In this document: positions 5,364 to 36,901 of the stretch, in pieces | Position numbering within the stretch: the stretch's first letter is position 1 | Layout: each line of letters starts with the position of its first letter | Virus record (IMG/VR): IMGVR_UViG_3300045988_115450 | Location: 43,582 to 107,581 of that record | Source of the DNA: a virus | Length of the DNA stretch: 64,000 nucleotides | Strand: one strand, 5' to 3' | Made by a program: the position numbers and the translations under genes | The notes under the pieces: model-generated | The model's input: the letters and a program-made list of their open reading frames with translations, nothing else | What the model was told of the DNA's origin: nothing | Databases searched by the model: none

Positions 5364-6218
5364 TTAGTTTTCCTGCTGTCCACTCCAAACAACCAGACAA
5401 TCAGGATTGGGGACACCTCTGGTTTCCTTACCATCTAGCCATCTAGCCAGTACATAAGAGGTCGTCAAGAACACACGGTGGCGGTAATGCTTGCACCGGC
5501 CATCAATAGCAGAATCCTTAATCCAATCTCTCAAGCGGACAATCTGCCTATCCAAACTAGACTCAGCATAACCAGTCTGAAGAACATTCCAGAAATATTC
5601 GAGCCTAACATCGCTCGCCCCGGCTTCTTTCGCCAGATACATGGCAGCTGTGATCGGAGCCGTGCCAAGCTTTCTCTGTCTCACCTTCAAGAAACTATTA
5701 ACCCAGGAGAATTCAGCGATGTGCTTCGAAATCATGTCCGCTCTCTTAGCTTCATTCTCCAAGTGCCTCGCACTAAATTCATTCAGCACCATGCAGATTG
5801 CAACCGAGCGCTTGTAAGAAGAAATCTTTCCTCTGTTTCCGCCCTCGGCCATACACAAAGCGTCGGCTTCACTTCTCGCCCTACCCCGGTCAATGTACGG
5901 ACTGCGTTCCATATTGAACAGGAAGAACATCTTTACTGTCTTACCGCAGCGCTTCACCGCTTCGAGCCGGTGATGCCCGTCAATAAGAACACCAGCCTTA
6001 TCAAACATAATAAAGCCGGTCGGAGTATTTTCATCCCATGTGCCATTCATCATATGGGACTTGTACTTATTCACAGTGCTCTTACTGATCGGACGATTGC
6101 CGCCGGACATAGCCAACAAACCCGTCGCCATTTCCGGAGACACGTAAGCATACGCCAACTGTCCACCGTTCCGTTCTTCTAGCAACAAGTTGCTCAACAA
6201 TTCTTCATAAGCTGTCAT
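5364..6218 (-). CDS. ParB/Srx N-terminal domain-like protein
   Basis: Start moved to MTAYEELL (RBS AGGAGG) because the ORF-track start overlaps a tRNA. Motifs NRPISKSTVNKYKSHMMNGTW and IDGHHRLEA match the ParB-like nuclease/CTPase fold. Confidence 0.7.
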   Translation of the reverse strand: MTAYEELLSNLLLEERNGGQLAYAYVSPEMATGLLAMSGGNRPISKSTVNKYKSHMMNGTWDENTPTGFIMFDKAGVLIDGHHRLEAVKRCGKTVKMFFLFNMERSPYIDRGRARSEADALCMAEGGNRGKISSYKRSVAICMVLNEFSARHLENEAKRADMISKHIAEFSWVNSFLKVRQRKLGTAPITAAMYLAKEAGASDVRLEYFWNVLQTGYAESSLDRQIVRLRDWIKDSAIDGRCKHYRHRVFLTTSYVLARWLDGKETRGVPNPDCLVVWSGQQEN

Positions 6219-6244
6219 TTGTATGTACCTCCTAAAAATTTTGC

Positions 6245-6321
6245 TGGTGGTTCCTGCCCGGCTCGAACGGGCGACCATCCAGTTATGAGCTGGACGCGCT
6301 AACCAACTGCGCTAAGGAACC
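6245..6321 (-). tRNA. tRNA-Met or Ile2 (anticodon CAU), CCA encoded
   Basis: Manual cloverleaf GGTTCCT/AGGAACC acceptor, loop CTCATAA, T arm GCCCG-TTCGAGC-CGGGC. Confidence 0.85.
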
Positions 6322-6397
6322 AGGTACGTTTAAAGCCGCTGAATTTATCAGCGGCTTTAAACTGTTAATGAAAGCAAGTGTCCGTATAAAACGAACG

Positions 6398-6472
6398 TGG
6401 CAGCGCCGGACTGAGATCGAACAGTCTTCCACGGAGTCAAAGTCCGTTGCATTACCGTTATGCTACGGCGCT
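6398..6472 (-). tRNA. tRNA-Gln (UUG), CCA encoded
   Basis: Acceptor AGCGCCG/CGGCGCT, anticodon arm ACGGA-CTTTGAC-TCCGT. The T loop is slightly irregular. Confidence 0.7.
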
Positions 6473-6583
6473 ATATAAATCAAGCAGAGCAGAGCAGAGT
6501 TTAAAGCCATTCCAGGCTATGTAAAGAAAGGAGGTGGTTTATCAACAATAACAGGTAGGAGAATCATTTTCTGTTGCTTGATA

Positions 6584-6658
6584 TGGGGTAGGCGACGAGT
6601 GCCGATCTCGCGTTTCCGGTTTGGAAGACCGGTGTTCTAGCCGTTGAACTACGCCTAC
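6584..6658 (-). tRNA. tRNA-Gly (UCC), CCA encoded
   Basis: Acceptor GTAGGCG/CGCCTAC, anticodon arm CCGGT-CTTCCAA-ACCGG. Confidence 0.75.
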
Positions 6659-6688
6659 ATTTTTGCGGTTCCGCAAACCGCATTTTTT

Positions 6689-7318
6689 TTAATTCATATA
6701 TAAATCATAATAACTTTGTTTTCTTCTTGGTTTCAAATCTGGATTTTTTAAACGCCTTTTGATGAACTCAACTGTATTATCCAGCCCATAGTTCCTGACG
6801 TATGTATTGATCCTGTTTGCTCCCAAACCTAAAGTTTTAGCCCAGTCCTTCCCAGTATGTATCGTTCCGTCAACATCAATAAGCGAAGTTGTAGACTTGT
6901 ATTTCGAATTATCTGCCAATGTTACCCATCTGCAATTATCAGGAGAATAATCCCCGTCCCAATCAATTCTATCAATAGTCAAACCATCATCGTACCCGTT
7001 AGTTAATGACCAACTCTCAAATAATTCTGGATTGCGCATCCAATCATCACAAACCTTAACACCCTTAGCGCCATACCATCTGTAGCTCTTATTACTCTTA
7101 TCATAGCACCTAGCTTTCATATCGCTAAAAATTCTCCGGAGCTTGTCGTCACTCCATGAAGCATCATAATTTATATAACCCCCGCTTCTTCCGATATGTC
7201 TACAAGCTTTCGCCTGCTCAATATGCCTTTTCTGTTTGTTCGTTTCAAACCCACACTCAGCACATCTCACATGGTATAATCTATGCCCGTCCCTATGCCT
7301 GAAATCACACTCATACAA
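6689..7318 (-). CDS. HNH/homing-endonuclease-like protein inserted in the tRNA array
   Basis: 209 aa. N-terminal CxxC..CRH zinc-like motif. YRWYGAKGVKVCDDW ... LTIDRIDWDGDYSPDNCRWVTLADN resembles the IDRIDNxGxYxxxNCRW signature of phage HNH-type proteins (from memory). Confidence 0.55.
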   Translation of the reverse strand: MYECDFRHRDGHRLYHVRCAECGFETNKQKRHIEQAKACRHIGRSGGYINYDASWSDDKLRRIFSDMKARCYDKSNKSYRWYGAKGVKVCDDWMRNPELFESWSLTNGYDDGLTIDRIDWDGDYSPDNCRWVTLADNSKYKSTTSLIDVDGTIHTGKDWAKTLGLGANRINTYVRNYGLDNTVEFIKRRLKNPDLKPRRKQSYYDLYMN

Positions 7319-7466
7319 GACATCGAAAATACCTATCCTAGTACCAACAATATTCTCTTTTTCCAGAATATCACCATCTTTCTGCGTGTTGCTAAATAAT
7401 AATCCGATGAGAGTGCTGCCCTCTCGCCTGCGTTGTTCACTGTACTACTGTTATACTAATCGGATG

Positions 7467-7547
7467 TACGGGCGACAAGATTTGAACTTGCAAGCCTTAC
7501 GGCACCGGGGCCTAAACCCGGCGTGTATACCGTTCCACCACGCCCGC
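7467..7547 (-). tRNA. tRNA-Leu (UAG), class II, no CCA
   Basis: Anticodon arm CCGGG-TTTAGGC-CCCGG, long variable arm, T arm GCAAG-TTCAAAT-CTTGT. Confidence 0.75.
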
Positions 7548-7629
7548 ATGGCACCACTAAGTCATGGTCGGCTGCGCATTTATCCTTTTTTGAATCGTGG
7601 TAGATGATTTTGCTTCGTACAACCACGCA

Positions 7630-7704
7630 TGGACTGAGTGGAGAATTTTGAAATCTCGACCTCTGGTTCCCAAAACCAGCGTTCTGCCTCTGAACTACAC
7701 CCAG
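7630..7704 (-). tRNA. tRNA-Pro (UGG), CCA encoded
   Basis: C1-G72 acceptor CTGGGTG/CACTCAG, anticodon arm CTGGT-TTTGGGA-ACCAG. Confidence 0.7.
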
Positions 7705-7707
7705 ATA

Positions 7708-7782
7708 TGGAGGCCGATGCGAGTTCGAACTCAGCGTCTGTGGGTTACAAAGCCACTGTTTTACCACTTAAACTAATCGGCC
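7708..7782 (-). tRNA. tRNA-Thr (UGU), CCA encoded
   Basis: Acceptor GGCCGAT/ATCGGCC, loop TTTGTAA, with a 31-39 mismatch. Confidence 0.7.
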
Positions 7783-7932
7783 ACGCACCCCGTTTTGCGG
7801 GGTGGCTATGTAAGGGAATCAAAAAGGGGAACTCCTGTCTCTTCCAGGATGCCAACACACTACTACGGACTGCCAGAGGCAAACCGCCACTTTTCAGGTG
7901 TCATAGTCCGCAAACTATGGGCTTTTCTTTAG

Positions 7933-8014
7933 TGCGGGATAAGAGACTTGAACTCTTACGTCTATCGACATCGAGACTTAAACACGAGGTGTCTACCGAT
8001 TCCACCAATCCCGC
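7933..8014 (-). tRNA. tRNA-Leu (UAA), class II, no CCA
   Basis: Acceptor GCGGGAT/ATCCCGC, loop TTTAAGT, long variable arm, T arm AAGAG-TTCAAGT-CTCTT. Confidence 0.8.
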
Positions 8015-8367
8015 ATATTGAACTTGCTACAACCCAGCCTGGTGGTTGACCCGTGGGCGTTGATAACTGACCCAAACCATTAACCCAGGATTTTGTAAAA
8101 CTTTAACCGTTAACCTTTGATTCTTGAACTTTAATCTTCTGAAGATCTTTGAGCCTTGAATTTTGAAATTTTAACTTTGAAGTTTGAGCTTTACAGCAAC
8201 ATTTCTTCTATAAGAAATTAGATTAACAGTCCAATCTTTTTGTAAGCGCAAAATTTCAAGTTTTGCTTTGTAGTTGGCACATATTTGTTCATTTTTACAT
8301 CGAACCAAGTGCCGTCAGCACGATGGGTTACCGTTTTAGGTTTTCGGGTTGCAGCAAGTTGCTTATT

Positions 8368-9021
8368 TTAGTATTCTACGGTGATTGTAGTGGTCGCATT
8401 GGACACAGATAGCTGAGAATCTACATCCGCAGTAAACGTGTCAATCCAATCGCTCAAAACCTTGATTTCATTACCAATGTCAAGCGGATCAACGAGTTCA
8501 TACGTATTGTTGGCAATATACTCTTCTCTCAACCGCTTAACGACCTCAGAATCCTTGGTTGTCTTGGCCTCTTTAGGCTGGCACTGGAGGAAATTCATGA
8601 TATACTGTTCAGCTTTCGCTTCAATCCACTCGCCTTCATGTTTGGAAACCTCAGCACGGGCTCTTTCGTACTGCCGGACCATTACATCAAGCAAATCTTT
8701 CTTAGCCATGATTCCATGGCTTTTCATTTCGATGGCTTCGGCTACGGTGTAAGGTTCGCCGCCAATTACCACCGGGGTTTTGGCATTGGAGAGCACAACT
8801 GCTCTCTTAATAGCCGTCCGACGAGCAATCAAGTCCGTAACAGACTGATAATCAGACTTCATATCCTTCTTGAGGGTTTCGACCAGCACACCGCCGATCT
8901 TTTTGTCGCTCACTTTCTTACTGGCAACGAAGGTTTTACCAGAAGTAGCATTGAAAATTCTAGCGTCCAAAATTTTCAGCTCTGCAAGAGCTTTATGGAC
9001 GGTCATAGTTTCTTTGTTCAT
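8368..9021 (-). CDS. Hypothetical protein embedded in the tRNA array
   Basis: 217 aa ORF with an ATG start. No motif recognised. Confidence 0.7.
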   Translation of the reverse strand: MNKETMTVHKALAELKILDARIFNATSGKTFVASKKVSDKKIGGVLVETLKKDMKSDYQSVTDLIARRTAIKRAVVLSNAKTPVVIGGEPYTVAEAIEMKSHGIMAKKDLLDVMVRQYERARAEVSKHEGEWIEAKAEQYIMNFLQCQPKEAKTTKDSEVVKRLREEYIANNTYELVDPLDIGNEIKVLSDWIDTFTADVDSQLSVSNATTTITVEY

Positions 9022-9072
9022 ATTAGTTCCTCACTTTCTTATTTATGGAATTAGATTTTTATCGTGGTATCG

Positions 9073-9163
9073 TGGTCTCCCTGGGTGAATTCGAATCACC
9101 ATATACCTTATGAGGGCCTTCCAATTATAAGTTGGAAGCTATAACCAATTTAGCTACAGGGAG
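9073..9163 (-). tRNA. Atypical 91 nt tRNA, anticodon UAU (Ile-AUA reading) with a class II-like 19 nt variable arm, CCA encoded
   Basis: Acceptor CTCCCTG/CAGGGAG, D arm GCTA..TAGC, anticodon arm (CT)TCCAA-CTTATAA-TTGGA(AG), T arm GGTGA-TTCGAAT-TCACC. Confidence 0.6.
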
Positions 9164-9443
9164 ATATTTGTTCAGCAACCACAACCGCCCTATCAATCAG
9201 TCGGCCTAACCAAAAGATAGGGCTGGATTGTGTTGCCCAACCGTGCCTGAGAGCTTTCTTGCCTAGCCTGTACTTAACCAGGTGTCTGCAATCAATGTTT
9301 AGGTTGCTGGTTTTGACCCTCGCTCTAGAACCAGTTAACTAGAGCGATTGAGAGCTACTAGACGGAATTGCACCGCCTTGAAGTCATAAGTGAGGCGCGA
9401 GAGGAGTTACGCCCACCTCTTCACCTGCTTGGAGTAGCATATG

Positions 9444-9519
9444 TGGCACCAGCACTAAGATTCGAACTTAGAACTACGGTTTTGGAGACCGCCGTTTTTC
9501 CACTTAAAACTATGCTGGT
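9444..9519 (-). tRNA. tRNA-Trp (CCA), CCA end encoded
   Basis: Acceptor ACCAGCA/TGCTGGT, loop CTCCAAA, T arm CTAAG-TTCGAAT-CTTAG. Confidence 0.85.
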
Positions 9520-16357: not shown

Positions 16358-16526
16358 ACAGCGTCCTACCTTTCCGCTACCCTAGCAAGCTGCTGCTAGG
16401 GTAGCTTTTTTTTGCAGGCATAGACAGAATCCACCTATGTTATCCCTGCGACCTCGCAGGCCAGGGCGATCCCAGCCTACGAACGCTCCCGGCCTAACGC
16501 CTGTTTATAGTCGCCGGGACGACTCT

Positions 16527-19587: not shown

Positions 19588-19637
19588 AGTAACATAATCA
19601 ATAGAAAACATTTCAAATTTAAAAGGAGGTTTTGCCA

Positions 19638-20528
19638 ATGAGCAACCTAATTTCTTTCCCCAACGGTACTGTCAATCCCGCCAGCAAAACTGTCAACCCC
19701 GCGTCCATCGACGTCAACTCTGTCCGCCGCTCACGGACTGCCGACAGTAGCCGTTCACGGGTACTCAAGCAGTCCGCTGCCAGCCGGATCACCGCTCAGA
19801 GCGACCAGCCGGTAGAGGTCATCACCGCACCTGACCGAGCGGCTGACCCTATTAAGAGTGTTGACGACATTCGTAAAGCGTGTTCCTACCTACTGGACAG
19901 CCATCGCTACAGAGACCACATGCTGCTGGTTATGGGTATCAATTTCGGCCTGCGAGTCAGTGACCTGCAGCGTCTCCGGTTCACCCACATCCTGAACGAG
20001 GACTTCTCCTTTAAAGAATCCTTTGAGATCCTGGAAAAGAAAACTGCCTCCACCCGTAAAAGAAAAAAGAACCGCTACGTTGTCATCAACGACGCGGTCA
20101 TGGACGCTGTGGAACTCTACCTGGAACACGCTCCCTACCCCGTCAGCCTGTCTGACCTCGTGTTCCGTTCTGAGAGCAATAACCGTGGTGCTTACGAGCC
20201 TGGTCCTCTCAACAGAAGATCCGTCAATCGTATCCTAGAAGATATCGCCGACCACTGCAATTTCGATTTCCGGTTCTCCTCTCATTCCCTCCGCAAGACA
20301 TTCGGCTACCACCAAATGATGATGTCCGGCAACGATCCTCGCAAGCTGGTACTCCTCCAGAAGATGTTCGGCCACTCCTCCATGAACGAGACCCTCTGCT
20401 ATATCGGCCTCACCAAGGAAGAGATGACCGAAGCCTACGCCAATCTGAACCTGGGTGGCAACGGATACGACTACCAGCTCGCTGCTCTGTACGAAGCACC
20501 TGCTGATTCAACCCCCGCCGCCATTTGA
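19638..20528 (+). CDS. Tyrosine recombinase/integrase 1
   Basis: GLRVSDL (Arg), HSLRKTF (HxxR), GHSSMNETLCY (His..Tyr). ATG at 19638 lies 8 nt after AGGAGG. The N-terminus is low-complexity. Confidence 0.8.
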   Translation: MSNLISFPNGTVNPASKTVNPASIDVNSVRRSRTADSSRSRVLKQSAASRITAQSDQPVEVITAPDRAADPIKSVDDIRKACSYLLDSHRYRDHMLLVMGINFGLRVSDLQRLRFTHILNEDFSFKESFEILEKKTASTRKRKKNRYVVINDAVMDAVELYLEHAPYPVSLSDLVFRSESNNRGAYEPGPLNRRSVNRILEDIADHCNFDFRFSSHSLRKTFGYHQMMMSGNDPRKLVLLQKMFGHSSMNETLCYIGLTKEEMTEAYANLNLGGNGYDYQLAALYEAPADSTPAAI

Positions 20529-22345: not shown

Positions 22346-23056
22346 TTGCCGAAACAAGCTGGGGAATGTTTCTGCCCGGACATCACCTTGGTAAACTTAG
22401 CTAGGGTCGCTATGCTGGCGACGCACATGCAGTATTCAGAGAACCCGATGCAAGATGGAAGTGTGGTGATGGCTGGCCGCACGAGAGCGCAGCACCCAAT
22501 GTCAAAGAGTGAGGCCCAAGATATCTTACAGATTGGGAAAGACGCCTTTTACAAATTTTTAGACGATATGGAACGGGCGCGTCTGGTGGACGAAAGCGCC
22601 CAGGGAGGCTTAATCTTGAGTAACTGGTTGTTCGCTAAGGGCAGGCTACCGAGGCAGAAAAGGTACGCTGCCCCAACCGCACGACTGTCTGTGCCAAAAT
22701 ATCAAAGACTATATACGGACAACGTGAAGAGCGCAAAAGAGATCGGCACCGTACTTCGACTGATCCCATTTATACATAAGAGCGAGCACGTGTTGTGCTG
22801 GAATCCGTACGAAGAAAATCTAGACTTGATCGCGCCGCTCACATTTACGGATGTCTGCCGAGTGCTGGGCAGAAGCACCAATAATGTTGATAAGTACAGG
22901 AAGCGATTTGAAAAAAATATGTCTAGCATGGCGGTTCGGGACGGACAATCGACACAATCTCTGTGTACGGTAGACAACTATCATGAAGGGCGGTATGCCA
23001 TTTTTATAAACGCGGGACTTGTCTACTTCAAAGAGTTGATGCCCCTATGTCAGTAA
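22346..23056 (+). CDS. Winged-helix DNA-binding protein, candidate replication initiator/regulator (paralogue A). The frame is open back to 22148.
   Basis: C-terminal region VLRLIPFIHKSEHVLCWNPYEENLDLIAPLTFTDVCRVLGRS aligns with the next gene. The first canonical start is TTG at 22346. Confidence 0.6.
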   Translation: MPKQAGECFCPDITLVNLARVAMLATHMQYSENPMQDGSVVMAGRTRAQHPMSKSEAQDILQIGKDAFYKFLDDMERARLVDESAQGGLILSNWLFAKGRLPRQKRYAAPTARLSVPKYQRLYTDNVKSAKEIGTVLRLIPFIHKSEHVLCWNPYEENLDLIAPLTFTDVCRVLGRSTNNVDKYRKRFEKNMSSMAVRDGQSTQSLCTVDNYHEGRYAIFINAGLVYFKELMPLCQ

Positions 23057-24081
23057 CTAAAATAGTAGCAATGCTGTCCGGCTGTGATACGTCTGATATT
23101 CAGTATGGCGAGGACGTACTGTCCAGCAACTTGGTGTTTCCTCCTAGCGCCGCTTATGACCTCCAGGGCTTCTGCGCTGGCGTTAGGCTGGATACCCTGC
23201 CCAGGCTTGTGGCTTTGTCACTCCACACTATCCCGGTGATAGAAATAGATTTCAGTAAGGGTGACAGCGGCGATAGTAGTCCTGATGGCGATAGCGACAT
23301 AGACGGCAGCGACAGCGACGACAGCTTTGATCTAGACGCTTTTGACACGACCGAGACCGAAGATAATCATTGGCATGTGATTCTTTCTAGTAGCACGCAC
23401 TCTCCTCAGATGGCTACTAGAACCGAGATCGGAGAGATTGCTATGCTTGATAAGAGTAGTTTAGATAATTTATTTTTAAAATGTGTTCCCTTAAATATAC
23501 TTCGACCAGACTGGTTTGGTCATTGGTATATAAACGATAATTTCTTTCTACGTGGAACTAAGCCAACAAGCGGGTCGTGGCAATATGTTAAGGTTCGAAA
23601 AGTTAAAAAAGACACCTTCCTCCAGCTTTATAAAAAAGGAACCGGCAATTTAAAATACATAGGAGCTGTGCTGAGGCTAACACCAAACCTTAATTGTGAA
23701 CACAACTACCTCTGTTACAACCCAGATGAAACACGTAGCGATGAGATTGTCCCCTTAGCCGCCCAAGATATCTGCAGGGTGTTAGGTTACGAGCCGCGCC
23801 GGGCTTCCTACTACATAGACAAACTCAAGGAAAAATTTTTAGGGATCACTTTTAAGCACGATGGCATAGAGCAACAGCTCTGCCGAATTGACAAAGATGG
23901 GAGCGACTACATAATGATGGTAAACCCCAACGTCATCTACGCCGACGGCCCGCCAGAGTACAAACGGATCTGCCTGGAGCTGTACTGGGGTTACCCGGAC
24001 CCGTTCGGCTCTCCGTTCCGACGGTATCCCTATCATCATATAAAAGGCCCGACACTAGACTACGTAAATAGAGTAAACTGA
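23047..24081 (+). CDS. Winged-helix protein paralogue B with an Asp/Ser-rich acidic linker
   Basis: AVLRLTPNLNCEHNYLCYNPDETRSDEIVPLAAQDICRVLGYE parallels paralogue A. Contains GDSGDSSPDGDSDIDGSDSDDS. Confidence 0.7.
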   Translation: MSVTKIVAMLSGCDTSDIQYGEDVLSSNLVFPPSAAYDLQGFCAGVRLDTLPRLVALSLHTIPVIEIDFSKGDSGDSSPDGDSDIDGSDSDDSFDLDAFDTTETEDNHWHVILSSSTHSPQMATRTEIGEIAMLDKSSLDNLFLKCVPLNILRPDWFGHWYINDNFFLRGTKPTSGSWQYVKVRKVKKDTFLQLYKKGTGNLKYIGAVLRLTPNLNCEHNYLCYNPDETRSDEIVPLAAQDICRVLGYEPRRASYYIDKLKEKFLGITFKHDGIEQQLCRIDKDGSDYIMMVNPNVIYADGPPEYKRICLELYWGYPDPFGSPFRRYPYHHIKGPTLDYVNRVN

Positions 24082-24438: not shown

Positions 24439-24454
24439 AATGGAGGAATGTAAA

Positions 24455-24775
24455 ATGGGTTTATTTGACAAGATGAAGAAGCGCAACGAAAAACAGTATG
24501 TACCGCACGTACACTACCCGGACGAATGGCCGTCCGACATGAAGATCGAACCGGGCGTCACCCCGACCGTAGTGATCTGTGAACCCGGCGCTAACCGCTA
24601 CAGAATCATCGCTACGGAGTATTGGAGTCAGCGGATGATCGGTGAGTTGGCCACCACCTCTCCCCGTGTCCACGTCATGCGAGAAGACGACAAGGTGATT
24701 GAAGCAACCTTCCCCGGCGAGTGGTTCAAGATCGAGTCCCCGCAAATGGCGGAGCTACGGAATAAGAAGAAATAA
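24455..24775 (+). CDS. Hypothetical protein
   Basis: Start at MGLFDKMKK with RBS GGAGGAA. Confidence 0.6.
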   Translation: MGLFDKMKKRNEKQYVPHVHYPDEWPSDMKIEPGVTPTVVICEPGANRYRIIATEYWSQRMIGELATTSPRVHVMREDDKVIEATFPGEWFKIESPQMAELRNKKK

Positions 24776-25025
24776 AAGAAAGAGTAAACTTTAAGCTGGG
24801 CGGCGACGCCGCCCAGCGCCAACAAACGATTCAAGGAGATGATCGCTTTTATGATAAGAGAGGTGCTTTTGACTGTTCGCACCTAAGTTATATACGACAT
24901 ATAAGATAGCTTTCAAGCTATTAAAAGAGAACAAATTTTCTTTACGGGTAGACCTGCGCCCCTACGAGATAAGGCAGGCGGACAATTTATTATTCTACCA
25001 GATACGGCGTATCACAGGCGAAGAT

Positions 25026-26432
25026 GTGACCTGTGCGCGGCGTATTTGTTTTGTCGATTGTAAGGGTAGCTCTTCTGATACGGACGCTATGACGGAGCTA
25101 ATTATGAATGGGTTCTGGTTAAACGGCACTCACTTTGTACTGTGCGAACGATCGGCGAGCATGACCCGCAACTCTATCTTGAGCTTTATCGACGCGACTA
25201 TATCAGATCCGGTGTACGAGACAATCACTATGGGGGCTGACCCCGGCCCGACAGTTATAAGTAAGCTAATGGCTTATAGAGGCTTGTGCCTTTCCTCTTG
25301 TCATTGCTTGAATGGCTTTCGCCCTAAAGTGATTGTTGTGCCGGACTACGAGTGCGTGTTGCCGCAACAGCATATCAAATACATATACGATGAAAAGACA
25401 TCCTTCATCAACGCTGACGGCAAAGAGATCCCCTGGACACAAAAGAATGTGGCGGACGGATATAGAGACATCAACGTCACGCCCTTTGACGGCTGCGGCA
25501 TACACCATCCAGCTATTACGGACGAGGTTCAGTTCCGGCTGTCGTCTGCTGATAGCCCGACGACGATACTTTGGCGAGCGCCGTATATCAAAGGTCTCAC
25601 CTGCGAGGTTGATTACCCAACCTTCTACGCCGAGCGGGGTGTAACATCCATCAAGGATATATGGGGCGTGTCGCATGATGTTACCCCGGACGCCGAGCCG
25701 ATGATTATCTTGAGCAAGAGTATGTATAAGGGCTTCAAATATTTTCAGACGAACAAAGATGCAACAGACTGGGAATATTATTGGGAGCAATTCGAAAAGT
25801 ATGGTTATTGCTTAGGTGTTGCTAAATGGAACTTCAATAAAGATATCGAGCCAGTTTATACGAGATGCAACTACCAGGTTCTTCAGACGCTCAACCTTCC
25901 TTATCAAGAATTTGTTGAGCTTGCTACGGACTCTATTGAGTGGGCAGAAAAGATTATTGACGGCGATCCTTTTTACTCTATGTGCTTCCTAGGGTTGACA
26001 GCAGATAAGTGTAACCCCTTGAACGATTATGCAAAATCAGTAATGAAGAACCCAACCATGCTTAAACAATATGAAGTGCGGAGTTACTTAATCAGTCTAC
26101 TGGCTAAATACATAGACGAGATGTGCTGCGGCAAGATATGGATCAAGAGCTGCTTCAAATTTCTGATACCCGACCTAATCGCATTTATGGAAGCGGCGGC
26201 GGGTCTAGTCCCGTCCGGCTGTCTCGGCGACAATGAATTTTACTGTATAACAAAAGAAGGTCCGATGTGTGGCGACAAGCTGATTACGCGTAACCCCCAC
26301 ATTTGTGATAGTGAGAATGTCGTGTTGTACGCTATCAATAATGAATTAACAAGCAAGTACCTCAGTCATTTGGTTAATACGTGTATCATCAATTCTAAAT
26401 CAATAATCCCACAAAGATTGAATGGAGCAGAT
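25026..26432 (+). CDS. RdRP/YonO-like two-barrel RNA polymerase, exon 1 (5' end of the gene unresolved)
   Basis: Ends KLITRNPHICDSENVVLYAI...RLNGAD. RNPxxxx[GD/SE] and the interrupted GAD|FDGD match the eukaryotic-type RdRP / SPbeta YonO signature. Confidence 0.7.
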
Positions 26433-26710
26433 TACTCCTAAACAAAGTCCTTCCCTGCGGTAACGTAGGTGTAAGCCCGGTGTGAACCGTTTATCAGCGG
26501 GTGTTGAACAAACGTCAGGAGCAGCAGGAAATGGCTGCTAGTTGTTCAGCTAACAGGGAAGCCGGAAGGTAATCCTGTGCAAGCCTTTAAGGAATGTGCA
26601 ACGACTATGGGTGATGAGTGTAGCCCAGTAGGAGTCCTATTGATACGGACTTCCAAGCGCACCGCTGCCGCTACGCGGTAGATGATATAGTCTTTCTACG
26701 AGAGTAGAAG
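26433..26710 (+). ncRNA. Group I intron 1 (ORF-less, phage IA2-like core)
   Basis: R element AACGACTAT (~26600) and S element GATATAGTCT (26684-26693). Terminal hairpin TTTCTAC-GAGA-GTAGAAG ends in G26710. There is an in-frame stop 2 codons into the intron. Confidence 0.7.
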
Positions 26711-27010
26711 TTTGACGGAGATTTAGTTTTAGTATTTAATGATGACAGGCTATTAAATGGCGTAGATAAAAACGCTATACCTGTTATAGACGTAGATGAT
26801 AAGATCACGACAGAGCCGGAGGAATTTACGCCAGAGAACAGGTTGAAAGTAATTCTACGAACAATGAAGAACCTGATTGGCGAGTATAGTAACTACGCAA
26901 CAGCATACAGAAACAGATGTGGTAAAACAGAGGAACAACGAGATAAGTACGAGAAGTATATTGACATTATAAGTGTCTTGACAGGTAAATCCATCAACGA
27001 TCGGTGGCCT
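26711..27010 (+). CDS. RdRP/YonO-like RNA polymerase, exon 2 (3' boundary uncertain, 27001-27019)
   Basis: Begins FDGDLVLVFNDDRLL. The frame is open 26708-27025. Confidence 0.6.
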
Positions 27011-27296
27011 ATGTTGGTAACAGCGTAGCGCAAAGTCAGTGAACCTACATATGTAGGGTGTCGGTTAATGACCGGCTAACGGAGAAAATCTAAGCGACTT
27101 ATCGTATGACAATTCCGTGCCAAGCCTTTGAAAAGGAAGGTGTAACGACTATCCCCTGGCGGTGAGATTCCGCAATAGGAGTACGGCTGAGTGAAATTCT
27201 CAGTGGGTGAGATTCCCTTAAATGGAAGCGCTGACTACCCGTAACTTACGGGTAATGATATAGTCTATTCCCTAACAAATATCCGGAAACGGAGGG
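27011..27296 (+). ncRNA. Group I intron 2 (ORF-less); boundaries approximate
   Basis: TAACGACTATCCC (27143-27155) and GATATAGTCT (27257-27266). Terminal hairpin CCCT..TCCG-GAAA-CGGA-GGG ends at G27296. The core is paralogous to intron 1. Confidence 0.65.
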
Positions 27297-27947
27297 TGTA
27301 AAAGAGATTACGCAAAGACCGGAGTCCTATACCCCATGCCACGTACTATTTCAAAATACGGACGCCCACTCCCCTACTTTATGAAGTACGCGTCACCATA
27401 TTATAAACGGCTGAAGCTTTCCCGCTCACTGTCTAATATGAATAAGCTGTGTTGGGAAATTGAGCATTGGAAGAGAAGCATCAGGTATAAAAGAGCCGAC
27501 CAAGAGTTCGACTATAACATCATGATTAACGATGAAATCCCTGTTTCGGACGAACTCTACAAGGAAATGGAGCAAGTCTATCGCTCGTTCTGCACAGAGG
27601 TAAAAGAGCTGTCGCACAAGTTGAAACAGCTCGATGGAGAGGACGCGGAAGCGGAACGCAAGAAAGCATACGCCCTACTGTACGAGCGGTATAGGAATCG
27701 ATGCTACTCTATTTGTAACGGCAACGCCTCGCTGGTTGCTAACGCCGCCGTTATGTTGTGCCATGACCACAGGACGTGGAATCAGCGGTTTAAGTGGGTT
27801 GTTGGCGGCGCTGGCATTGTTAGCAATATCGAGCAGGCAGACATCAAACTGCCAAAGCAGGATGATACAGGAGAACTCGAATACCTAGGAAAGAGATACA
27901 CGATGATTAAGATAAAGAAGGAGGATGTTCCCTCATTTGATAGATGA
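27297..27947 (+). CDS. RdRP/YonO-like RNA polymerase, exon 3
   Basis: The frame is open from 27276, upstream of the ORF-track ATG at 27336, with no RBS at that ATG. It continues to the stop at 27945-27947. Confidence 0.55.
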   Translation, partial: CKRDYAKTGVLYPMPRTISKYGRPLPYFMKYASPYYKRLKLSRSLSNMNKLCWEIEHWKRSIRYKRADQEFDYNIMINDEIPVSDELYKEMEQVYRSFCTEVKELSHKLKQLDGEDAEAERKKAYALLYERYRNRCYSICNGNASLVANAAVMLCHDHRTWNQRFKWVVGGAGIVSNIEQADIKLPKQDDTGELEYLGKRYTMIKIKKEDVPSFDR

Positions 27948-32649: not shown

Positions 32650-33623
32650 TGGCTAGGCAGAAATTAGGGGCGACGGAACCCACAAGAGTCAAAGGTCAGT
32701 TCAAATGTGTTGGTTGCGGCACTGTCTATCCTACACAAGCCCGTAATTTCAAGACTGTTCAGAGCACGCTGTATAAAGGAAATAATAACTACCTGTGCTG
32801 GTGTAACAGGTGTGTTGACGCCCTATATATCAAGTATAGGGATAGCGGTCTATCTGAGGCGGACGCAGCTAAAAAGGTATGCTCGAAGTTTGATATCTAT
32901 TGGGAAAAAGACGTTTGGGATAAGGTCTCTACGGCGAACAAAAGCGAGAGTTCAACATTGATCAGAACTTACCTTGACCGAATGAACCTCAACCAGCATA
33001 TTAAAAAGACATATGACAACACTGTCGTCGAAGAAGCCCGGCGACAAATGCTACTGGGGAAGCAGGCTTCTATTGGTATGAACGCTGAAGAAGATCCTGA
33101 AGTCCCCCCTGAGCTAGAAGAGTTCTGGGGTAAGGGCAGAGAGCCGTGGTGCTACAACGAGCTTCAACATACATACGACATGCTGACTAATGGATATACC
33201 GTTGATACTCCCGCCAAGGCTCTCCTGGTTAAACAGGCTTGTCTGTCTGTGTTTGAGATTGATGAACTTCAGAAGAATGGTAAACCTTTCGAAAAACAAC
33301 AAGCCTCTCTGGTCAATACGCTAGGTTCATTGAATCTGAAGCCCAGCCAGATCAAAGAGGACGAGCGGAACTCTGGGTTGGACGATATGCCATTTGGTGT
33401 AGCGATTCAAAAGTGGGAGCAGACACGCCCTATTCCGGAGCCGCAATCGGACTGGGTTGACGTTGATAATATTAGAAAGTACAACATGACTTGGTTCCTA
33501 GGCCCGCTGTGCAATATGGTCGGAGTAGATAACAAGTACAATGAAATGTATGAAGAGGCAATGAGTGAGTACAGGGTTAATCGTCCGGATTACTCAGAAG
33601 ATGAGGATGTGGTCGATGAATGA
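32649..33623 (+). CDS. Putative terminase small subunit / DNA-recognition protein (Zn-ribbon N-terminus)
   Basis: Position immediately upstream of, and overlapping, the terminase large subunit. CVGC...CWCNRC. Confidence 0.4.
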   Translation: MARQKLGATEPTRVKGQFKCVGCGTVYPTQARNFKTVQSTLYKGNNNYLCWCNRCVDALYIKYRDSGLSEADAAKKVCSKFDIYWEKDVWDKVSTANKSESSTLIRTYLDRMNLNQHIKKTYDNTVVEEARRQMLLGKQASIGMNAEEDPEVPPELEEFWGKGREPWCYNELQHTYDMLTNGYTVDTPAKALLVKQACLSVFEIDELQKNGKPFEKQQASLVNTLGSLNLKPSQIKEDERNSGLDDMPFGVAIQKWEQTRPIPEPQSDWVDVDNIRKYNMTWFLGPLCNMVGVDNKYNEMYEEAMSEYRVNRPDYSEDEDVVDE

Positions 33624-35395
33624 CAGAGTACACAAAGACACGACAAATAAGACTTGACTCTACTAAGTCAAGAGAGGAACGCGTCTTCGAAGGTGTTGCT
33701 GCCTGGGCGGCTTTCTACCGAGCTAACCCACACAGATTCGCAAAAGACTACCTGGGTATTAGCCTGAAGCCATTTCAACAAATACTTATGGTCGAGATGG
33801 ATCAATGTAACTATACTGCCTATATTGCAGCGAGAGGGCAAGGCAAGAGTTTTCTTATTTCTCTTTACTGCTGTGTGCGGTGTATCTTGTACCCCGGCAC
33901 AAAAGTCTGCGTTGCTGCTGGGCGTAGATCTCAGAGTATCAATATTCTGGAGTACATTCAGAATCAGTTTATGGTAAACTCGCCAGGGCTGAAACGCGAG
34001 ATTAAGACTATCACGACAGCTCCTAACAACCCTATTTGTATCTTTGAAAACGGGTCAACGATTAAGGTTGTAACTGCTAGTGATACAGCTCGTGGCAACA
34101 GAGCGAACATTATTATCTGTGATGAGTTTAGAATGATCCCTGAATCAGCCATCAATGAGGTGCTAAGGAGATTTCTTTCTGACGAACGTCATCCACCGTA
34201 TATTGATAATCCAAAGTATGCTCATATTAAAGAAAGAAATAAAGAAATCTATTTGACTTCTGCCTGGTTTAAAGATCATTGGTCATACAAGAAGGTCGAA
34301 GATTTTTACGCTAAGATGGTACAAGCTGGGCCGTACTTTGTATGTGGTCTTCCCTATCAGCTTTCAATTAAAGAGGGGTTGTATAGCGCAGAACAGGCGA
34401 TAGAAGAAATGTCCGAAGCGACATTTAATGAATCCCAATGGGCGAGGGAAATGGAATGTTGCTGGACGGGCGACGTTGAAGGTTCGTTCTTCAACTATGA
34501 GGCAATCAATCGCACGCGACGTCTGAAGTTCCCGATGCTGCCATCCTATGCCTTGCCTGGAAAACTGGCTGCCAAGGATATGGGGATCGTGAACAAACAG
34601 GTAGATGAGATAAGAATAATATCTGTTGACGTCGCTTTGATGAGTTCTACGAAAAAGTCAGAGAACGACGCGACGGCGATCTTTGTGAATCGAATGACGC
34701 CCAATACGCATGGTCGTTACTATAGCAATATCGTTTATACGGAGTCGCATGAAGGCGAGACGACGCAAAGACAGGCGTTACGTATTCGGAGATTGTACGA
34801 AGAATACTCAGCAGACTATATTGTGATTGACGGCAAAGGCGTCGGCGCTGGTGTGGTTGACTTGTTGCTGGACGATATATATGATCCTGACACAGGCGAA
34901 ACATATGGTGCTCTGTCCTGCTATAACAATCCTGACCTTGCTGCTAGGTGTACCGACATGGATGCACCAAAAGCTCTGTGGGTAATAAATAATCAGACTG
35001 CACGCTTCAATTCGGAGTGTGCTTTTTCTTTGAGAGAAGGGTTCCGGTCTGGTAAAATTCGCTTGCTTGCAAACGAATATGATGCGGAAGATTATCTCTC
35101 TGAAGTACGTGGTTGGGGGTCCATCAACCCGGTCGAGAAGACTGCGGTTCGACTTCCGTATGTGGACACTACGTACCTGGTTGACGAAATTATTAACTTG
35201 AAATACGAAGACACTCAATCAGGTGTAAAGGTATACGAAAAATCCGGTTATCGAAAAGACCGGTACTCATCCCTTTCATATAACTACTGGGTTGCGTGTC
35301 AATTAGAAGATAAGTCGCGTATAAAGAGAAAGTCCAATATAGACATCTCTGAATTGTTGCGATGCCAAAGAGCACCTAGACTCAGAAGGAGGTGA
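33620..35395 (+). CDS. terL: Terminase large subunit
   Basis: Walker A-like ARGQGKS, Walker B IIICDEF, C-terminal nuclease-size domain. Located next to the portal gene. Confidence 0.85.
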   Translation: MTEYTKTRQIRLDSTKSREERVFEGVAAWAAFYRANPHRFAKDYLGISLKPFQQILMVEMDQCNYTAYIAARGQGKSFLISLYCCVRCILYPGTKVCVAAGRRSQSINILEYIQNQFMVNSPGLKREIKTITTAPNNPICIFENGSTIKVVTASDTARGNRANIIICDEFRMIPESAINEVLRRFLSDERHPPYIDNPKYAHIKERNKEIYLTSAWFKDHWSYKKVEDFYAKMVQAGPYFVCGLPYQLSIKEGLYSAEQAIEEMSEATFNESQWAREMECCWTGDVEGSFFNYEAINRTRRLKFPMLPSYALPGKLAAKDMGIVNKQVDEIRIISVDVALMSSTKKSENDATAIFVNRMTPNTHGRYYSNIVYTESHEGETTQRQALRIRRLYEEYSADYIVIDGKGVGAGVVDLLLDDIYDPDTGETYGALSCYNNPDLAARCTDMDAPKALWVINNQTARFNSECAFSLREGFRSGKIRLLANEYDAEDYLSEVRGWGSINPVEKTAVRLPYVDTTYLVDEIINLKYEDTQSGVKVYEKSGYRKDRYSSLSYNYWVACQLEDKSRIKRKSNIDISELLRCQRAPRLRRR

Positions 35396-35401
35396 GTTGT
35401 T

Positions 35402-36901
35402 ATGGGCGAAAAGTTTGTACTAGATAGTACACCAGACGAGAAATCTAAACAGGAGTTTGCTCTCAAAGATACATTCAGAATGCCAGAACGGTTTAAAGTC
35501 TTGAATCGGTTGGTTATGCGAGATTTGAATCGGCGAGATTATAGACCCACATTTAAGAAATACACCAAGGAACAGATTCTAGACTTCTTAGAAGATCCTT
35601 ATACTCATGAGAAGCAGCTGCGGGATGCCTGCATCAATATGTATGGCGTTAGTTCTTACTTCCGTCGTCTCATTCAATACTTTACTATGTTGAACGACTT
35701 GGCTTATGTTGTGTCGCCGTTTGGTATGGATATATCAAAAGAAAATAAGACAAGTGTGAAGCGTAACTTCAATAAGGTTCTTAAAGTAATGGAAGCGTTC
35801 AATGTAAAGTCGCAGTTTAGAAAGATCCTTACAGTGTGCTTTAGAGAAGATGTTTATTATGGTACGCTATGGGTTACGCAAGACAACATCACAATTCAAA
35901 GGCTACCGTCTGATTACTGTCGAATTTCTTCAATAGAAGGCAACGTCTATAATGTAAGTTTCGACTTTACGTATTTTGCGACATACCCGGACAGGCTTCA
36001 ATTCTTCCCAGAAGAGTTTCGTGTAAAATACGACGAGTACAAGAAGCGTTCTCTCGATAGATGGATTGATCTGGATTGCCCAACGTCTTTTGCTATCAAA
36101 TGCACAAATGATATTGACTCTTATGCCCTCCCCCCATTCATTGGTATTATGCCTGAGATATATGACCTGGAGAGTTATAAAGAACTTAAGCTCACTAAGA
36201 CGGAGCTAGAGAATTATGCAATCTTGGTTATGAAGCTTGGCCTTACCTCTGATGGTCAATGGCAGATGGATTTTGATAAGGCGAGAGAGTTCTGGATGAA
36301 CCTTGACGACGTTCTGCCTGATGCAGTTGGTTCGGTCTTAACTCCGATGACAGTTGACAAGATTTCCTTTGAAAAATCTTCTAGTACAGATTCAAATGCT
36401 GTAGCTGATGCAATCAGCTCGCTGTTTGATTCCGCAGGCGTCTCTTCCCTGCTGTTTAATAACAGTAGCAAGTCATCTAGTAATGCCCTGCTGCTCTCTA
36501 TCAAAGCCGACCAAGGTATTACTTATGGCGTTGTGAAGAGTATTGAGGATATGGTCAACCGGTACATCCAGTCATTGAATTTTGGTAAGAAGTTTAGAAT
36601 TACGTTCCTAGATTCTTCTCCGTTTAACAGAGACGAACTGGGTAATCAGTATCTCAAGATGTGCCAGGTTGGTATGCCTATGGTGTCTTATCTAGCCGCA
36701 ACGTATGGTATGCCACAAGCAGACATGAACTGTCTCAACTATCTTGAGGATGATATCTTGGATATTAAGAATCGCTTTATGCCTCTTCGCTCTACAAACA
36801 CTATGAGTTCTGATTCGTTGGCGGAAGCCGGTCGTCCGGAAGCGTCCGCACAAGAACTTAGCGACAGCGGAGAAATCTCGCAAGAGAGAGACGAAGATTA
36901 A
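35402..36901 (+). CDS. Portal protein
   Basis: 499 aa directly after terL, with an acidic C-terminus. Confidence 0.7.
   Translation: MGEKFVLDSTPDEKSKQEFALKDTFRMPERFKVLNRLVMRDLNRRDYRPTFKKYTKEQILDFLEDPYTHEKQLRDACINMYGVSSYFRRLIQYFTMLNDLAYVVSPFGMDISKENKTSVKRNFNKVLKVMEAFNVKSQFRKILTVCFREDVYYGTLWVTQDNITIQRLPSDYCRISSIEGNVYNVSFDFTYFATYPDRLQFFPEEFRVKYDEYKKRSLDRWIDLDCPTSFAIKCTNDIDSYALPPFIGIMPEIYDLESYKELKLTKTELENYAILVMKLGLTSDGQWQMDFDKAREFWMNLDDVLPDAVGSVLTPMTVDKISFEKSSSTDSNAVADAISSLFDSAGVSSLLFNNSSKSSSNALLLSIKADQGITYGVVKSIEDMVNRYIQSLNFGKKFRITFLDSSPFNRDELGNQYLKMCQVGMPMVSYLAATYGMPQADMNCLNYLEDDILDIKNRFMPLRSTNTMSSDSLAEAGRPEASAQELSDSGEISQERDED

Follow-up and report, generated by a model that had tools for sequence, protein, structure and literature searches.

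A YonO-like phage RNA polymerase gene interrupted at two conserved motifs by group I introns

The stretch of DNA considered here, 64,000 nucleotides (nt) of the IMG/VR virus record IMGVR_UViG_3300045988_115450 (positions 43,582-107,581; hereafter the window), carries a gene for what would be an RNA polymerase (RNAP) resembling YonO of phage SPbeta. Alignment of homologs and the splice rules of group I introns place the gene at 24873-27947 on the plus strand, with three exons and two introns. Our reading, to which we assign a probability of roughly nine in ten, is that the three exons belong to a single gene whose product is a YonO-like, single-subunit RNAP of the two-barrel type, and that the two interruptions are IA-type group I introns expected to excise themselves.

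On the proposed scheme, 24873-27947 would be transcribed as one precursor, in which each of the two introns would fold into a ribozyme with paired regions P1-P10 and excise itself in two steps. In the first step free guanosine would attack after the U of a U.G wobble pair in P1 (U26432 and U26994); in the second, the freed 5' exon would attack after the terminal G of the intron (G26710 and G27304), with P10 as the guide. Ligation would re-form the codons of the Mg-binding loop (GAD|FDGD) and of the SI|DYAKTG motif, giving an 828-residue enzyme. The introns themselves would be selfish homing elements aimed at the two most conserved nucleotide stretches of the gene family.

Exons, junctions and the start codon

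A provisional spliced translation, used as a search query, retrieved 378 homologs, mostly uninterrupted, 810-850 residues long and nearly all with the Pfam family PF05183 (RdRP, RNA-dependent RNA polymerase); the best of them is 70% identical across its full length. Eleven of the homologs were aligned in order to fix the junctions and the start. Exon 1 (24873..26432, + strand; 520 codons) ends in ...QRLNGAD with U26432 as its last base, and exon 2 (26711..26994, + strand; 284 nt) opens with FDGDLVLV. Intron 1, 278 nt without an open reading frame (ORF), occupies 26433..26710 (+ strand), between the codons for D and FDGD. The alignment is free of gaps at this junction and QRLNGAD|FDGDLVLV is invariant. 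The original prediction, made from the sequence of the window, had proposed just this join, of U26432 to the base after G26710, and had put the first intron inside the DxDGD catalytic motif. Both points hold: GAT|TTT GAC GGA GAT reads D|FDGD in frame, and the homolog alignment and an allele in which the site is empty (L007, below) agree on the position.

The second junction required more care. All three of the co-directional open segments that had been predicted are present, but of the two ORF-free spacers between them only the first, flanked by U26432 and G26710, was correctly delimited. Naive read-through of the second, formerly placed at about 27029-27275, adds exactly 20 residues that are absent from all of 12 uninterrupted homologs, so that the seemingly open codons on either side of it, as far as 27028 and from 27276 onward, are intronic. 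Only the combination of U26994 and G27304 satisfies the group I rules and gives GKSIDYAKTG (TCC AT|A GAT TAC). Intron 2 is thus 310 nt long (26995..27304, + strand), likewise without an ORF, and follows the second base of the Ile codon in GKSI|DYAKTG; exon 2 ends in ...LTGKS and AT, the first two bases of that codon, and exon 3 (27305..27947, + strand; 643 nt with the stop codon) supplies its third base and continues with DYAKTGVLYPMPR... to the C-terminus.

The homologs begin MFAPKLY, with Met, Val or Leu as the initiating codon, and this aligns with a CTG at 24873, immediately 3' of an in-frame TGA. A ribosome-binding site (RBS), GAGAGGTG, read from the sequence at 24860..24867 (+ strand), lies 7 nt before that codon and is conserved in five related loci (L001, L007, L008, L009 and L029). 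The CTG is kept in the window and in five related contigs, six contigs in all, which rules out a sequencing error; distant relatives have GTG, TTG, ATG, ATC or ATT in its place. Because the start is CTG, ORF lists that use ATG, GTG and TTG begin the polymerase gene 51 codons late. The GTG at 25026 that had been taken for the start gives way, on the homolog alignment and the RBS, to CTG 24873, and the product grows from the estimated 785 or so to 828 residues. A match of exon 1 to phrog_8308, which covers profile positions 121-551 and so begins only at position 121, had raised the suspicion of a third intron between the ORF at 24440-24775 and the gene; that was ruled out, since MFAPKLY of the homologs corresponds to 24873.

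Natural alleles

Interruptions were mapped by tblastn in 126 related loci (numbered here with the prefix L), of which 88 are uninterrupted. Three resemble the window in having both introns, each without an ORF (L001, L029 and L008, the last being IMG/VR record IMGVR_UViG_3300045988_122191). The other arrangements are an intron 1 together with an intron 2 that carries a GIY-YIG endonuclease gene (L009); an empty site 1 with a GIY-YIG-carrying intron at site 2 (L007); a site-2 intron only, also with GIY-YIG (L002 and L054); both sites filled, but site 2 by a different intron lineage (L004); an intron at site 1 whose P6 loop carries an HNH_3 ORF (L124 and L125); and a short site-1 intron only (L126). 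Intron-less alleles thus exist, and precise excision would restore a continuous host gene.

The most informative of these loci is L007, whose exons are 95% identical to those of the window in DNA and 97% in protein and whose site 1 is empty, as it also is in L002 and L003. Its sequence AATGGAGCAGAT|TTTGACGGAG is exactly the ligation product predicted for site 1, and 90 of 90 nt match upstream. At site 2 the position AT|N GAT is common to five loci (the window, L001, L002, L004 and L103), with A, A, T, C and A, respectively, as the synonymous third codon base. Comparison of the window with L029 shows introns more conserved than their flanking exons (intron 1 is 97.8% identical, exon 1 89.0%); either structural constraint or recent spread would account for such high conservation.

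The spliced polymerase

Joined at these positions, the protein matches PF05183 with 56 bits (cut-off 23.8) over residues 74-650, in one stretch that crosses both junctions. The separate exon pieces matched no Pfam family, and exon 1 alone gave only chance-level matches to Pfam and to PDB sequences (EF1G, an aminoglycoside kinase). The match to SPbeta YonO has an E-value of 5e-27 in blastp, where 658 residues that take in both DxDGD and ID(F/Y)AKT align at 24% identity, and tblastn to yonO gives 1e-20. Splicing puts GADFDGD at residues 518-524, and in 28 sequences D520, D522, G523 and D524 never vary. A confident AlphaFold2 model built with 28 sequences has a predicted local distance difference test (pLDDT) value of 89.4 and a predicted template modelling (pTM) score of 0.86. 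The structural comparison that the original prediction had suggested as a check, run with Foldseek, returned RDR2 or QDE-1 exclusively as its top 21 PDB matches (E-values from 1e-16 to 2.5e-21, template modelling scores of 0.50-0.57), after which only the largest subunits of multisubunit RNAPs appear, and these weakly; the viral matches are phage 'RNA-dependent RNA polymerases'. Sequence matches and model together support the earlier identification of the joined protein as a YonO-like, RdRP-like two-barrel polymerase.

Among intron-bearing alleles, the ratio of nonsynonymous to synonymous change (dN/dS) is 0.04 in exon 1, 0.01-0.03 in exon 2 and 0.06 in exon 3, with a synonymous difference (pS) of 0.4-0.7. 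Values of 0.01-0.06 in every exon argue against a pseudogene and also against three independent polypeptides. The latter alternative has precedents: split two-barrel RNAP genes are known in jumbo phages (PMC7598289) and gene callers do predict separate ORFs here, so that one might imagine three chains assembling into an enzyme without any RNA splicing, as do beta and beta' pieces in jumbo phages and cyanobacteria. We regard such a naturally split enzyme as extremely unlikely. Exon 2 opens at FDGD with neither a start codon nor an RBS, its first in-frame ATG, GTG or TTG being at 26843, 44 codons in; exon 3 likewise shows no start signal where its conserved sequence begins, DYAKTGVLYP being upstream of its first ATG (27336); the breaks would leave the first Asp of the catalytic triad on another chain than its partners and cut an Ile codon; and the spacers are conserved, covarying ribozyme folds, as described next.

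Two group I ribozymes

The R and S core elements of group I introns are exact in both spacers, where the original prediction had located them: AACGACTAT at 26600-26608 and 27144-27152, and GATATAGTCT at 26684-26693 and 27257-27266. A motif scan of the window turns up no cores besides these two. In a permissive-filter Rfam search of 26380-27360, no RNA family other than RF00028 (Intron_gpI) reaches significance. The structures that follow were derived by hand on the window and projected on to MAFFT alignments of orthologs from which the endonuclease ORFs had been removed.

In intron 1, P1 pairs 26424-26432 with 26447-26453 (the wobble is U26432.G26447) and P10 pairs 26443-26446 with 26711-26714. 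P2 (26454-26469) is followed by P3 (26478-26482 with 26660-26664), by two extra hairpins (26487-26500 and 26505-26548), and then by P4 (26553-26557 with 26574-26578), P5 (26561-26570) and P6 (26579-26597). P7 pairs 26603-26608 with 26687-26692 and is accompanied by P7.1 (26609-26626) and P7.2 (26631-26653); P8 (26667-26679) and P9 (26695-26708) lead to the terminal G26710, which is exactly where the RF00028 match ends. In nine sequences, 97.6% of cells are standard pairs and 30 of 80 pairs are changed on both sides, these being counts of cells in related sequences and not of independent events, as are those given below for intron 2. Slid controls gave about 37-47% paired and 5-8 pairs changed on both sides, and none of 500 shuffles reached the observed value. 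The U.G wobble is invariant (9/9 sequences) and P10, CAAA/UUUG, is 97% paired. P7 has one compensatory pair and P3 has two; the P3 of the window, CGGUG/CACCG, is replaced by CGACG/CGUCG in three relatives.

A further, conserved hairpin, at 26424-26438, is formed by the last codons of exon 1 (GGAG) and the first bases of the intron (CUCC); it holds the 5' splice site in its loop and competes with P1. It too covaries, as GGGG/CCCC in L004, L124 and L126 and, in a shifted register, as GAGC/GCUC in L125.

Intron 2 is built on the same plan. P1 pairs 26991-26995 with 27003-27007 (U26994.G27004), P10 pairs 26999-27002 with 27306-27309, and P2 (27009-27028) and P3 (27035-27039 with 27231-27235) are again followed by two extra hairpins (27044-27057 and 27062-27074). 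P4 (27079-27083 with 27114-27118) and P6 (27119-27141) precede P7 (27147-27152 with 27260-27265), three P7.x hairpins (27159-27217), P8 (27238-27252), P9 (27270-27296) and the terminal G27304. In 11 sequences 94.3% of cells are standard pairs and 39 of 73 pairs are changed on both sides; slid controls gave about 36-44% paired with 7-17 such pairs, and again 0 of 500 shuffles reached the observed value. The count excludes P5 (AGCGA/TCGTA) and P7.1a (CCCCT/AGGAG), both of which held non-pairs, and the site-2 intron of L004 was left out of the set as unalignable. The wobble is invariant in 11/11 sequences, and P1 covaries with the exon at three pairs (CCAU/GUGG, GCAU/GUGC and GCGAU/GUCGC); P10, GAUC/GAUU, is 84% paired. 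P3 has four compensatory pairs (GUCAG/CUGAC as against GUUGG/CCAAC) and P7 has one. The P3/P7 pseudoknot is thus backed by compensatory pairs in both introns, and the terminal G ends the introns in every ortholog. The three successive hairpins at 27159-27217 have near-identical loops (UGAGAUU, UGAAAUU and UGAGAUU); their match to Gut-1 RNA is weak and at chance level (17.6 bits, E 1.6).

The following observations count against the proposed reading of the two spacers. The search with RF00028, which had been proposed as a check, does match both (34.7 bits, E 6e-7, for intron 2 and 24.0 bits, E 9.5e-4, for intron 1, in the region search), but both scores lie below the gathering score of 50 bits, an operational cut-off and not a structural definition. 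Over the whole 64-kb window, intron 2 is recovered with an E-value of 3.9e-5, but intron 1 was not recovered at E <= 0.05, and at Rfam gathering thresholds the window yields tRNAs and a Pistol ribozyme and no intron match. Both introns have, between P3 and J3/4, two hairpins that covariation supports and that are absent from the T4 td intron; a published name for them (P3.1/P3.2) was sought in papers on Bacillus introns and none was found. Finally, there is no endonuclease gene in either intron or elsewhere in the window. The low scores probably arise because the RF00028 model misaligns the P3 region, where the two extra hairpins are located; in L001, an ortholog 83% identical to intron 2 reaches 50.5 bits. 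Covariance-model match, splice-site rules, guide pairings and strong covariation together support the identification of both spacers as group I introns, from which we infer that both would be self-splicing. As had been predicted, neither contains an ORF. Calling the second intron a paralog of the first was too strong, however: the two are about 40% identical overall, with common core blocks and a common architecture, and are best described, from comparison of their sequences, as introns of the same type that are not close paralogs and have no recent common ancestry.

An insertion of some other kind, an intein, a group II intron, an insertion sequence (IS) or a miniature inverted-repeat transposable element (MITE), has nothing in its favor other than the sub-threshold Rfam scores, and its probability is vanishingly small. 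In-frame stops lie within two codons of the first junction and 11 of the second, which excludes the read-through that an intein needs. (The original prediction had placed such a stop within a few codons of each 5' splice site, which is correct for the first but not for the second.) RF00028 stands alone as a significant RNA family, with an E-value of 5.1 for a group II domain; terminal inverted repeats and target duplications are absent; and the U.G wobble, the terminal G and the logic of P1 and P10 are all as expected of group I introns.

It might also be supposed that the gene is a decaying pseudogene, its two inserts being the dead remains of introns that have lost the ability to splice, in which case full-length polymerase would not be made. 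Rfam scores under the gathering cut-off, the absence of endonuclease genes and the unusual CTG start all fit that supposition. We nevertheless hold it to be very unlikely, in the face of the strong purifying selection on all three exons, the helices, whose pairing has been preserved through compensatory changes at 30 pairs in intron 1 and 39 in intron 2, the occurrence of the same architecture in at least five independent contigs, and the conservation of the CTG start along with its RBS.

The phage and its late genes

The window is, judged from its sequence, that of a temperate phage, and the host is a member of the gut Clostridia. The polymerase gene lies between an early/lysogeny region and the structural genes, with an integrase gene upstream of it at 19632-20528 and genes for the large terminase (33620-35395) and portal (35402-36901) downstream. 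YonO is a DNA-dependent RNAP that transcribes the late genes of SPbeta and whose Asp triad is essential (PMC5467207; Forrest et al. 2017). The analogy to YonO and the location of the gene just upstream of the packaging and structural genes, terminase and portal among them, make it most likely that the enzyme of the window transcribes the phage late genes; on the same analogy, its template is probably DNA.

Without splicing, the mRNA has a stop two codons into intron 1 and would specify a 522-residue fragment lacking the Asp triad. It is conceivable that the introns gate the output of the late-gene polymerase, with splicing and the late switch being made dependent on translation or on the state of the host through the 26424-26438 hairpin and the weak CTG start, but we consider this unlikely.

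Upstream of the polymerase gene, at 22346-24081, lie two adjacent ORFs of 236 and 344 residues that are paralogs, since both match phrog_9501; the genes at the corresponding position in relatives are Bro-N or AntA/ANT antirepressor-like. Elsewhere in the window, a Pistol ribozyme matches over its full length at 16447-16524 on the minus strand (63.9 bits, E 2.6e-9; the gathering score is 34.5), and about ten tRNA genes are clustered at 6248-9519, also on the minus strand, the tRNA at 6248-6321 being found in the permissive search only.

Endonucleases and neighboring insertion sites

Because the window encodes no endonuclease, present-day mobility of its introns is unsupported. Its relatives do have such genes: HNH_3 ORFs in the P6 loop of the site-1 introns of L124 and L125, and GIY-YIG/NUMOD3 ORFs in the site-2 introns of L002, L007, L009 and L054 and in yonO of Bacillus phage Goe11, the GIY-YIG ORF of site-2 introns being located in the P5 loop.

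Other introns lie close to the two sites. In L103 (Faecalibacillus sp. CAVAGP010000002, with a protein 52% identical) a group I intron at 6079-6362 interrupts DFD|GD, 6 nt downstream of site 1 of the window, a second insertion point within the same metal-binding loop. In L080 and in Goe11 a homolog of intron 2 is found 4 nt downstream of site 2, at GAT|T(A/T)C, with its guide matched to that position. In L080 the P7.1/P7.2 region of this intron (7130-7356; ACGACUAACCGUGAUGAGUGUAGCGG...UAUUGGUACG) resembles intron 1 of the window (26598-26710) and not intron 2, a likeness suggesting that the two intron families have exchanged modules. In L004 a 262-nt intron (6045-6306) occupies exactly the site 2 of the window (AT|C GAT) and is 42% identical to intron 2; it had no match to RF00028 at E <= 0.01 and, on its sequence divergence, is apparently of a different lineage at the same position.

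Relation to known introns and polymerases

AR9 already provides a known case of introns in phage genes for two-barrel RNAPs, and there is no new mechanism here. The closest familiar relatives of the two ribozymes are the group IA introns of T4 (td and nrdB) and of phages that infect Gram-positive bacteria (SPbeta bnrdE/F, and those of AR9/PBS1). The td intron shares with both the elements AACGACTAT and GATATAGTCT (and does contain, exactly, the strings GCCTAACGACTATCCC and GAGATATAGTCTGC that the original prediction had given), P7.1/P7.2-type hairpins after P7, and insertion where an essential gene is most conserved; the endonuclease genes (GIY-YIG or HNH) in peripheral loops of the relatives of the window introns recall I-TevI in td. 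What sets the window introns apart from this type is the YonO-type polymerase as the host gene, the lack of ORFs, the pair of hairpins between P3 and J3/4 and the RF00028 scores below the gathering cut-off. Introns of AR9/PBS1, phi3T and SPbeta-like phages are 76% identical to the 3' half of intron 2, and the AR9 copy resides in an RNAP beta gene. That gene, for the beta subunit of the AR9 virion RNAP, is a join of six pieces with homing endonuclease genes and so likewise represents self-splicing introns in a phage two-barrel RNAP gene, but its product is multisubunit, beta/beta'-like and not single-chain and RdRP-like, and it belongs to another phage lineage with another host.

Among polymerases, SPbeta YonO is of similar size (839 as against 828 residues), aligns colinearly, and is also phage-encoded beside late genes; it differs in its 24% identity, in its Bacillus as opposed to Clostridia host and in being specified by an uninterrupted gene. 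The eukaryotic cellular RdRPs QDE-1 and RDR2 are the best structural matches and share PF05183 and the motifs NP...(D/E), DxDGD and D(F/Y)AKTG; in contrast, they are only 12-16% identical to the window protein, whose gene resides in a phage.

The nearest counterpart to the interrupted gene is yonO of the phi3T type. In vB_BsuS-Goe11 (MT601272; L005 4001-5290), and likewise in phi3T, SPR and SPbetaL3-L7, a group I intron of about 1.3 kb interrupts yonO at GAT|TTC and encodes a GIY-YIG/NUMOD3 protein. The interruption falls in the same ID(F/Y)AKT motif and the ribozyme core is homologous to that of intron 2, the two having in common GUCAGUGAACCUA...UAGGGUGU, GAAGCGCUGAC and the last 45 nt or so. 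The Goe11 intron differs in being inserted 4 nt downstream (GAT|TTC as opposed to AT|A GAT), in its guide, CGAU/GUCG, and in its 300-residue GIY-YIG/NUMOD3 ORF, and the DFDGD of Goe11 YonO is without an intron. In GenBank records the split gene appears under the names yonO_1/yonO_2 or as hypothetical proteins, and the intron is not annotated. We found no publication on introns in yonO or YonO-like genes, which is weak evidence because the search reached few subscription journals.

To call the arrangement in the window unusual was thus an overstatement: in phages, group I introns typically interrupt essential genes where these are most conserved (PMC2504315), and split yonO genes are already in GenBank. 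That ORF callers would miss the spliced gene was well judged, since they fragment it and the exon pieces fail against Pfam; the protein database contains many 'proteins' that consist of exon 1 only or of exons 1 and 2 (P0004-6, P0016, P0023, P0034, P0049, P0051 and P0082). For annotation it matters that such a polymerase is undetectable by Pfam until spliced. Ribozymes of 278 and 310 nt without ORFs, together with natural alleles in which the sites are empty, also offer handy material for tests of splicing and homing.

For the evolution of homing sites the finding is of moderate interest. It extends a known rule, that homing introns are aimed at catalytic motifs, to the YonO-type family of single-subunit RNAPs. 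The two motifs of that family may be a hot spot of intron homing across bacterial classes: introns of at least two lineages, associated with two families of endonucleases, occupy at least four positions in them, and the hosts include both Bacillus and Clostridia. One intron family has kept to a single protein motif in phages of Bacilli and Clostridia alike, its insertion point shifted by a few nucleotides and its guide re-tuned to match.

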